Source of the DNA: Candidatus Omnitrophota bacterium | GTDB taxonomy: Bacteria > Omnitrophota > Gorgyraeia > Zapsychrales > Zapsychraceae | NCBI GenBank assembly: GCA_050250375.1 | Contig: JBFWOS010000001.1 | Location: 219,346 to 283,345, forward strand | Direction of reading: 5' to 3' | Length of the DNA: 64,000 nucleotides | In this document: piece by piece, positions 38,874 through 51,717 of the stretch | Numbering within the stretch: the first letter of the stretch is position 1 | Layout of the letters: the number at the start of each line of letters is the position of its first letter | Position numbers and translations under genes: made by a program | Notes under the pieces: generated by a model | Databases searched by the model: none | The model's input: only the letters and a program-made list of their open reading frames with translations | What the model was told of the DNA's origin: nothing

Positions 38874-39035
38874 ATCCCCTCCTTAAAATAAAAAACTCCC
38901 ACAATCGGATTTCCGTTGCAGGAGTCATCGGCCCCTTCATGAGCGGGCGGTTAAAGGCGAACTCCATCGCCTCAAATCGTTTAGTTGTTAGAAGTCTACC
39001 CCAAGAAACCCCGGCCGTCAAGTCCGCCGATCAAT

Positions 39036-50466: not shown

Positions 50467-50798
50467 TTAAAAATTCTTCCTTTTGATCTGATCCCTTTGT
50501 CACATTTGGTTGCTGTCTTATAGTGATTACAAACCAGAAGCATTGCTTAATATTATCTTTTGTTTCAATAGTATACGTTGTATGCAAATTGTAGCAAGTC
50601 AAAAGTTACCAGAACATGGCAATATACTTTATTATGCAATCACACTTATCCCCTTTTCAAGTTGTCAATTTGGTATCTTAAATAAAAAATCCGAAAGCAA
50701 AGTGTTCGCTGAATTTTAGCTGTCAAAAAGAAAGCCGTTGTAACTCATTGAGCTACAACGGCTTATAAAACTCCCCCGCGAGGACTCGAACCTCGGAC

Positions 50799-51428
50799 CC
50801 AGTGGTTACGATCTGACTTCAGTTACCTGAAGAGTCGGACTTTCTCTTCACCGATCATTTCTGATTACGGCGGCGGGTGTAAAGTCTCTGCACTTGCCCT
50901 CCCCGCCACATTGTTTCGCTTTGCTTAAACATGCGAAACAGCGGGGATGCTAGCTCAGGATTGTCCCCAGCGTTTTGATTTGTTTGACTCATCAAAACGA
51001 ATCCGTGGGGATTTCCCTGATTTAGCCCGCTTTTCACTCTGGTGTTTCCACCAGAGGCTGCTAACTTTGAGCATGAAGTTCACGGTGACAGTTCGCGCAT
51101 AACATAATGCACTTATCCAATTCTGCCTTAACTTTATTCCAGCTTCGGGTATACCCTTTTGCGGAAATCGTAAAGTCTTTCTGAACCGGATCAATGTGAT
51201 GAAATTCCAGCGCATCTATACAACGATCATAACCGCAGCGTTCGCATTTCCCACCTTTATATGTCACCGCCATTGCACGTATTTTCTTTCTTCGTGCGTA
51301 AACGGCTTTAATGAGATACTCGCGCCGATCTTTGTATGTACGTTTGTCTTTCTTCACCCGATCACCCCCCTCATGCTTTTGTGTCAATTGAGACACTCGC
51401 CTTGTCTGTTTACAGACAAGGCTCGTGA
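50799..51428 (-). mobile_element. Putative group I intron in tRNA-Asn, inserted between positions 35 and 36 and carrying an HNH ORF
   Basis: Exon 1 ends in U and the intron ends in G, which is the group I rule. GNRA-capped hairpins occur near the 3' end, for example GACUCUUCAG-GUAA-CUGAAGUC. An ORF sits in a 5'-peripheral region and is followed by about 260 nt of structured core. Confidence 0.45.
51061..51396 (-). CDS. HNH homing-type endonuclease
   Basis: CERCGYDRCIDALEFHHIDPV...LCANCH is the HNH signature with zinc-binding Cys pairs. It lies inside the tRNA intervening sequence. Confidence 0.7.
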   Translation of the reverse strand: MSQLTQKHEGGDRVKKDKRTYKDRREYLIKAVYARRKKIRAMAVTYKGGKCERCGYDRCIDALEFHHIDPVQKDFTISAKGYTRSWNKVKAELDKCIMLCANCHRELHAQS

Positions 51429-51717
51429 ACAGCCACTTGCTCTACCAACTGAGCTACAGGGGAATAAATCTGTAAATTTTTTTAAAGAACAACTTCCCCT
51501 GGATTCCATGATTCTTAAGGGAAAATCCGTGCGGGGGAACGCAACCTGTTTGACAGGAATATAATCACAAGATTATATCTAAATACTCTGAAAAGTCAAC
51601 TGTCTAATTCAGACAAAATGACCGGCCATGAAGGCTGCCCTTTATTCCAGATTTTGTTTGGCAATCCCGCCCGCCTGCTTTACAATATGACCATTAATCT
51701 TATAAAATAAATTTCAT

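Follow-up and report, generated by a model that had tools for sequence, protein, structure and literature searches.

A tRNA-Asn(GUU) gene of Candidatus Omnitrophota split by a group I intron with an HNH nuclease gene in its P1 loop

Known tRNA introns and the split tRNA-Asn gene

The number of intron classes in bacterial tRNA genes was raised from 4 to 21 by Williams (2020; bioRxiv 10.1101/2020.01.27.920355), and according to Nakagawa et al. (2026, mSystems; PMC13011429) one of these classes, 'Asn.4Ug', comprises introns between anticodon positions 35 and 36 of tRNA-Asn(GUU). Here we describe an intron at this site, carrying an HNH nuclease gene, in a stretch of 64,000 nucleotides from a Candidatus Omnitrophota bacterium (assembly GCA_050250375.1, contig JBFWOS010000001.1, positions 219,346 to 283,345), referred to as the window; coordinates are those of the window, and all of the features described in it lie on the minus strand. 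Nakagawa et al. reported 15 tRNA-Asn(GUU) introns at 35/36 in Patescibacteria, found PF01844 HNH genes in four tRNA-Asn introns, and assigned 25 of the 28 introns at 35/36 to subgroup IA. One tRNA-Asn and one tRNA-Asp intron at this site, members without an open reading frame (ORF), self-spliced precisely in vitro. In the complete genomes to which that survey was confined, 35/36 introns were rare outside Patescibacteria and nuclease-bearing ones occurred only there, and the authors noted that draft genomes might change this picture; the rows listed in their supplement include an fMet intron for one Omnitrophota genome. The first-pass annotation of the window had called insertion into tRNA-Asn at 35/36 unusual, a view that is out of date for a class catalogued in 2020 and reported to self-splice in 2026 (PMC13011429).

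We put at about 90% the probability that the window contains a functional tRNA-Asn(GUU) gene of Candidatus Omnitrophota, whose anticodon is interrupted by a self-splicing group I intron that encodes an HNH homing endonuclease in its P1 loop. What we observe directly is the tRNA, the group I core with its covariation, the HNH domain and the purifying selection acting on the HNH protein; the splicing activity, the nuclease activity and the nuclease target we infer.

Exon 1 (51463-51429) covers tRNA positions 1-35, reads UCCCCUGUAGCUCAGUUGGUAGAGCAAGUGGCUGU and ends in GGCUGU, the six nucleotides (51434-51429) that form the 5' strand of P1. Exon 2 (50808-50771) covers positions 36-73, reads UAACCACUGGGUCCGAGGUUCGAGUCCUCGCGGGGGAG and ends in the discriminator G. 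Between them lies an intron of 620 nt (51428-50809), with U at position -1 and a terminal omega-G. When the exons were joined, ARAGORN returned tRNA-Asn(gtt) with a regular cloverleaf, as had been expected of the two halves, and the predicted ligated 73-nt tRNA contains GGCUGUUAACC. The boundaries given earlier needed partial correction: the lower intron boundary had been set at 50799 and the end of the tRNA at 50761, each 10 nt too low, and the true values are 50809 and 50771, while the remaining boundaries stand. Removal of 50799-51428 would delete UAACCACUGG and give no cloverleaf, and the insert is 620 nt rather than about 630 bp.

Of the possible placements, only insertion at 35/36 combines a U at -1 with an omega-G and a GUU anticodon, and the pairing of the guide in P1 and P10 agrees with it. 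With default settings ARAGORN detected no tRNA in the raw 64-kb window, and no second, intact tRNA-Asn gene was found within it. In intron mode the program recovered the split gene with a 620-nt intron, but set the boundary 2 nt upstream and called the product tRNA-Thr(cgt), a mis-call that has been described for ARAGORN and tFind with the 35/36 tRNA-Asn intron class (PMC13011429). We rejected the tRNA-Thr call because the intron would then end in U and not in G, the tRNA body matches tRNA-Asn, and the guide fits GGCUGU|UAAC. Since standard tools miss or mis-call the gene, genomes of Omnitrophota and other groups will appear to lack tRNA-Asn, and their completeness scores would suffer. A 3' CCA is absent from the window gene (50768-50771), and so CCA must be added post-transcriptionally; among about 75 related genes, about 45 encode CCA and about 30 do not.

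The window intron has in common with the Asn.4Ug class its host gene, the 35/36 site, the U(-1)/omega-G rule and the misreading as tRNA-Thr through a 2-nt shift, and the long published versions carry a PF01844 HNH gene, as the window intron does. The hosts differ, being Omnitrophota in the window and mostly Patescibacteria in the published set, and kinship with the latter was seen through a Patescibacteria member of our own scan (Magasanikiibacteriota, locus L079). The published introns belong mostly to subgroup IA; the window core has no insert between P7 and P3', which relatives such as L019, L031 and L079 possess. With the classical introns of tRNA-Leu(UAA), tRNA-fMet, tRNA-Arg(CCU) and tRNA-Ile(CAU), for example that of Azoarcus pre-tRNA-Ile (IC3), the window intron shares insertion into the anticodon loop, a guide that pairs with bases of the anticodon arm, and a compact core in which P2 is capped by GAAA and P9 by a GNRA loop. 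It differs from them in its host tRNA, in its site, which is 33/34, 34/35 or 36/37 in the classical introns (PMC13011429), and in holding a 300-nt ORF and an extra hairpin in L1. The Synechocystis tRNA-fMet intron at 33/34 encodes a nuclease, the PD-(D/E)XK enzyme I-Ssp6803I (Bonocora and Shub 2001, as cited in PMC3984707), whereas the window nuclease is a putative HNH enzyme of 98 residues in tRNA-Asn at 35/36.

The ribozyme core and its covariation

The first-pass annotation had proposed a group I intron and suggested a cmsearch with Rfam RF00028 as the check. This search gave a match to the full-length model at 51085-50816, with a score of 65.5 bits (E = 2e-14; gathering score 50), and RF00028 was the only intron family in Rfam to match the insert. 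The splice sites also follow the group I rule, as first read, with a 5' exon that ends in U (51429) and an intron that ends in G (50809); this omega-G, followed by UAAC, is invariant in 79 homologues.

An internal guide sequence, GUUA|GCAGCC, is located at 51065-51056. Its GCAGCC part pairs with GGCUGU of exon 1 to form P1, and its GUUA part pairs with UAAC of exon 2 to form P10. Read by eye, all 10 nt of the guide can pair with the ligated anticodon arm, and the single wobble, U.G between U35 and the first G, falls exactly at the splice site; the internal guide of P1 is GUUAGCAGCC. At the sequence level GCAGCY followed by P2 was present in all 79 aligned homologues, and the junction GGCUGU|UAAC is common to the 79 loci. 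An alternative P1, in which GUUCACG would pair with CGUGAAC in the codons for CHREL through seven Watson-Crick pairs, was dropped because it offers no U.G wobble, sits in a conserved protein motif and is absent from relatives whose intron starts with G. The Rfam alignment uses this same region for the first 30 model positions, which are probably misplaced.

Downstream of the guide, P2 is a hairpin, UCUGGUG-GAAA-CACCAGA (51055-51038), that is 97.7% paired among the homologues, with compensatory changes in six of its seven pairs. The catalytic core, defined by the Rfam match, the alignment and pair counts, spans 51030-50837. It comprises P3 (51030-26/50877-73; 100% paired), P4 (51020-15/50960-55; 98.9%), P5 (51011-07/50968-64), P6 (50954-52/50894-92; 97.5%), P6a (50947-41/50906-00), P8 (50871-68/50853-50; 91%) and P7 (50888-83/50841-37), in which GAGACU pairs with AGUCC around a bulged A. 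P7 is invariant in the 79 sequences and matches the Rfam consensus AGACU/AGUC around the guanosine site. P9.0 (50836-35/50811-10) is 88.6% paired and both of its pairs covary, and the P9 hairpin CUUCAG-GUAA-CUGAAG (50832-50817) is 93% paired. The GNRA-capped hairpins that had been noted in the insert are those of L2 (GAAA), L8 (GAAA) and L9 (GUAA).

Covariation was assessed in a MAFFT alignment of 79 ribozyme domains (alignment A2), in which pairs were counted on our own P2-P10 structure. Across these homologues 86% of cells were paired, compared with 69% in shuffles and 32-47% in slid controls. The covariation score was 0.47, a value that none of 500 shuffles reached (0.17 in shuffles; 0.07-0.13 in slid controls), and changes on both sides were found in 38 of 54 pairs. 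P3 had compensatory changes in all five pairs and was fully paired, and P7 was fully paired without variation. P6a and the distal P5 pairs were poorly paired in this alignment (51% and 77%); since these are regions of variable length, we attribute this to the alignment and do not count it as evidence against the fold. Independently of the alignment counts, RF00028 confirmed the intron in all ten split-tRNA loci tested. The first-pass annotation had also allowed that no core from P3 to P7 might be found; because P1, P10, the U.G pair, omega-G and P7 could all be placed and P2-P9 covary over 79 homologues, that outcome no longer applies. Together with the published in vitro splicing of two other 35/36 introns, the sequence and its covariation strongly support the view that the RNA would restore tRNA-Asn by group I self-splicing.

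Directly after the 5' splice site L1 contains a P1-extension hairpin (51427-51394; z = -3.3) of the form CAC-GA, a 10-bp stem with a UAAA loop, and GA-GUG, with tandem G.A pairs. A hairpin framed by CAC-GA and GA-GUG was present at this position at most loci, in ORF-less and ORF-bearing introns, and in many homologues the frame reads CACGAG...CGAGUG.

The HNH gene and its relatives in bacteria and phages

The HNH gene (51357-51061) occupies the part of L1 that follows the P1-extension hairpin and leads up to the guide sequence, and encodes 98 residues and a stop from a GUG start; counted mechanically from the first in-frame GTG, the frame extends over 51396-51061. A Shine-Dalgarno-like GAGGGGGG (51372-51365) ends 7 nt before the GUG, and in homologues AAGGAGGUG precedes the start codon, which is UUG, GUG or AUG. 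The HNH ORF picked out from its HHIDP...CANCH motif was borne out by a match to Pfam PF01844 (25 bits; cut-off 21.4), and the protein also matched the phage HNH family phrog_2255 (E = 1.6e-31). The pattern CxxC...HH...CxxCH...H is invariant in 20 homologues. The protein is 100% identical to a Candidatus Omnitrophota protein and has more than 1000 homologues, the best 120 of which are all at least 69% identical. Among 64 ungapped homologues with a mean amino-acid identity of 73%, nucleotide divergence at the three codon positions was 0.25, 0.14 and 0.56, and the protein is therefore under purifying selection. In an AlphaFold (AF2) model (pLDDT 85) a long helix at the N terminus precedes the HNH core.

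The UAG stop codon of the ORF overlaps the guide sequence. Many homologues have no stop at the guide, and their frame crosses P2-P8 before it ends, 150-180 nt further on, at a UAG in J8/7 (L030, L033, L045, L063, L076 and others; P0009, P0023 and P0037 in alignment A1). The seeming conservation of the C-terminal tails of these read-through frames is due only to that of the underlying RNA.

To place the gene among bacteria, one genome per species was scanned, and at least 567 stretches encoded a relative of the HNH protein; the best 80 were kept for study of the locus. These 80 loci carry about ten phylum-level labels: 40 are from Omnitrophota, 13 from Planctomycetia/Planctomycetales bins, 11 from Acidobacteriota, two from Melainabacteria and two from Nitrospira, and the remainder are singles that include Elusimicrobia, Aerophobetes, Scalinduaceae and the Patescibacteria member L079. 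In all 80 the HNH relative is in or beside a tRNA-Asn(GUU) gene split at 35/36; ARAGORN recognised 77 of the split genes once their exons had been spliced, inspection by eye added L066, and the other two run off their contig. L079 encodes an HNH protein 70% identical to that of the window in the same layout, aligns in A2 and scores 75 bits with RF00028. The kind of element is itself known, and the host phylum Omnitrophota together with the breadth over several phyla extends its published distribution substantially: draft genomes reveal the HNH-bearing form in Omnitrophota, Acidobacteriota, Nitrospirota, Melainabacteria and others, and a link to phage tRNA arrays. The occurrence of the intron-plus-HNH unit in distant phyla at about 70% protein identity fits horizontal spread.

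The nuclease gene also occurs outside the intron. In three Omnitrophota loci (L002:1501-2300, L010:1501-2272 and L017:1501-2210) it is a separate gene immediately upstream of a tRNA-Asn gene and its TTGACA/TATAAT promoter, and the 35/36 intron of that tRNA-Asn gene is ORF-less and short, at 236-312 nt; in a Saccharicenans locus (L042:1023-1790) it lies about 150 nt downstream of the split tRNA-Asn gene. The free-standing proteins of these four loci fall inside the cluster of intron-borne ones and share 80-87% identity with the intron-borne proteins closest to them. As the HNH gene is free-standing beside an ORF-less intron in four loci, the nuclease gene evidently moves in and out of the intron.

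Viral contigs in IMG/VR contain at least 573 further relatives, 55-70% identical to the window protein, as free-standing genes in phage tRNA arrays. We examined 80 of these loci (L081-L160; for example L139:1501-1866 and L082:1114-1883). The nearest tRNA was an intron-less tRNA-Asn(GUU) in 62 of the 80, often 9-33 nt downstream of the ORF, and in five loci tRNA-Asn flanked the HNH gene on both sides. RF00028 found no intron in the three phage tRNA arrays tested. The viral HNH proteins are more diverse than the bacterial cluster. The viral protein closest to that of the window, among those examined, is 70% identical (L081:1501-1779), and a search within 1.5 kb of its gene yielded no tRNA and no group I intron. 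The viral arrangement resembles that of T4 SegB, a nuclease encoded in a phage tRNA cluster; SegB belongs to the GIY-YIG type, whereas the relatives described here are, by their sequences, HNH proteins.

The anticodon arms of the phage tRNA-Asn genes were too diverse for the nuclease target to be deduced from them, and this approach was abandoned. Intron-less tRNA-Asn genes with the same anticodon and T arms as the window gene were present on at least 120 metagenome contigs. On six of these (L187, L188, L201, L214, L232 and L245) the tRNA-Asn is identical to the spliced product of the window at 73 of 73 positions, in unrelated genomic contexts, and potential homing targets are therefore available. 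None of 120 contigs shared the flanking genes of the window, so that presence/absence polymorphism within the window's own lineage is not demonstrated.

Read as DNA on the opposite strand, the guide (51056-51065) is GGCTGCTAAC, an inverted near-copy of the exon junction and presumed target GGCTGTTAAC, and the ORF ends there. This sequence suggests that the guide may have served as a pseudo-target through which the nuclease gene invaded the intron.

Each of the stages that have been proposed in the origin of a mobile intron is thus represented in the family: a gene on its own by an intron-less tRNA-Asn gene, on its own beside an ORF-less intron, and embedded in a P1 loop. This suggests, tentatively and at slightly less than even odds in our judgement, that the HNH protein comes from a lineage of small nucleases that have specialised on the tRNA-Asn gene and pass between phages and bacteria. 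If so, HNH-driven homing, possibly carried by phages, would have spread the tRNA-Asn intron across many bacterial phyla, contrary to the published view that tRNA introns are mostly without nucleases and rarely transferred. The viral and free-standing arrangements resemble the 'collaborative homing' and 'endonuclease-gene invasion' routes (PMC3984707), and we offer the resemblance as a lead and not as a result. In collaborative, or trans, homing, free-standing endonucleases act with ORF-less introns, as for F-CphI/psbA and MobE/I-TevIII (PMC3984707, PMC2790892); the relatives beside ORF-less tRNA-Asn introns (L002, L010, L017 and L042) are arranged in this manner, whereas the window gene is already inside its intron. 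Free-standing and intron-embedded copies of one nuclease family at one gene make a natural system for studying the assembly of mobile group I introns.

Proposed mechanism, alternatives and flanking signals

The best-supported reading of the locus is ordinary group I self-splicing combined with HNH-driven homing into intron-less tRNA-Asn genes, the homing part being the more conjectural. In this model a single precursor would be transcribed from the promoter about 110 nt upstream to the terminator just past exon 2. The guide would pair with the anticodon-arm bases GGCUGU of exon 1 to form P1, placing U35 in the U.G wobble, and a free guanosine bound in P7 would attack after U35. The terminal G of the intron would then take over the guanosine site while P10 (GUUA with UAAC) aligned exon 2, and ligation of the exons would yield mature tRNA-Asn. 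The 98-residue HNH protein would be translated from its own Shine-Dalgarno sequence and GUG start, and would most likely cut intron-less tRNA-Asn genes, into which repair would copy the intron. The intron mechanism is of a well-known group I type; what is new is the host range, the distribution and the wider associations of the nuclease.

Several observations weigh against this reading. P10 has only 4 bp, is paired in 52% of cells and is kept only among the closer relatives of the window. The Azoarcus intron has a P8 with a CCUAAG...UAUGG receptor, and relatives of the window intron carry this canonical receptor, which the window's own P8 lacks. The last codons of the ORF overlap the guide, and translation and P1 formation would therefore compete. 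The top Foldseek matches to the modelled protein were all HNH nucleases (Cap5, the Cas9 HNH, Gme HNH and T4 endonuclease VII) but weak (E >= 0.18), a sequence search of the PDB likewise gave weak HNH matches only, and the proposed nuclease target derives entirely from genomic association.

In an alternative that we consider improbable, though less so than the two that follow it, the ribozyme self-splices and the intron is inherited mainly vertically, the HNH protein having either lost the function of a homing endonuclease for the tRNA-Asn 35/36 site or never had it. Selection may in that case have kept the protein as a splicing helper, as a nuclease against foreign intron-less tRNA-Asn genes, or as an enzyme with a different target. 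The protein is conserved to a degree unusual for a selfish nuclease (mean identity 73%, third codon positions nearly saturated), and clade-specific intron variants follow host groups, as in the Acidobacteriota loci, which share the P7-P3' insert and the flank of the guide sequence. At 98 residues the protein is also very small for a sequence-specific enzyme, and the phage relatives adjoin their own intron-less tRNA-Asn genes, with diverse anticodon arms, evidently without destroying them. However, three different layouts link the family to tRNA-Asn genes, as expected of a nuclease that recognises this gene, and the intron-plus-HNH unit recurs in distant phyla at a protein identity compatible with horizontal spread. 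Nakagawa et al. also interpret the HNH-bearing tRNA-Asn introns as homing elements (PMC13011429). We retain homing into tRNA-Asn as the more probable role of the putative nuclease.

That the window holds a dead tRNA-Asn gene with a decaying insertion, while an intact copy elsewhere serves translation, is very improbable. The lack of an encoded CCA would be in keeping with such a gene, yet about 30 relatives lack it as well. The two exons are undamaged and together form a perfect cloverleaf, purifying selection acts on an uninterrupted ORF, and the core scores above the Rfam threshold with its helices kept by compensatory changes across 79 lineages; covariation over the homologues and the Rfam confirmation in ten loci thus rule out a decaying pseudogene. 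A different element, whether a group II intron, an IStron, a protein-spliced bulge-helix-bulge intron or a mobile element using the tRNA as its attachment site, is the least credible explanation of all: tRNA genes are common integration sites and ARAGORN alone cannot tell the type of an intron, but this idea is refuted by the covariation and by the match to RF00028, the sole Rfam match, and an ORF scan of the insert and its neighbourhood revealed no reverse transcriptase, transposase or integrase, the tRNA end is not duplicated, and the boundaries obey the U/omega-G rule with a matching guide.

The split gene is flanked by candidate transcription signals. About 110 nt upstream of the tRNA a promoter-like site (51599-51572), TTGACT and TATAAT separated by a 16-nt spacer, agrees with the consensus at 11 of 12 positions and is identified by this match only; TTGACA...TATAAT also precedes the tRNA-Asn gene in relatives L002, L010 and L017. 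Beginning 7 nt past the tRNA, a hairpin of 15 pairs followed by a U-run (50764-50722) resembles an intrinsic terminator. Elsewhere in the window, minus-strand ORFs are preceded by a fluoride riboswitch (38912-38980; Rfam RF01734, 55.2 bits against 34).

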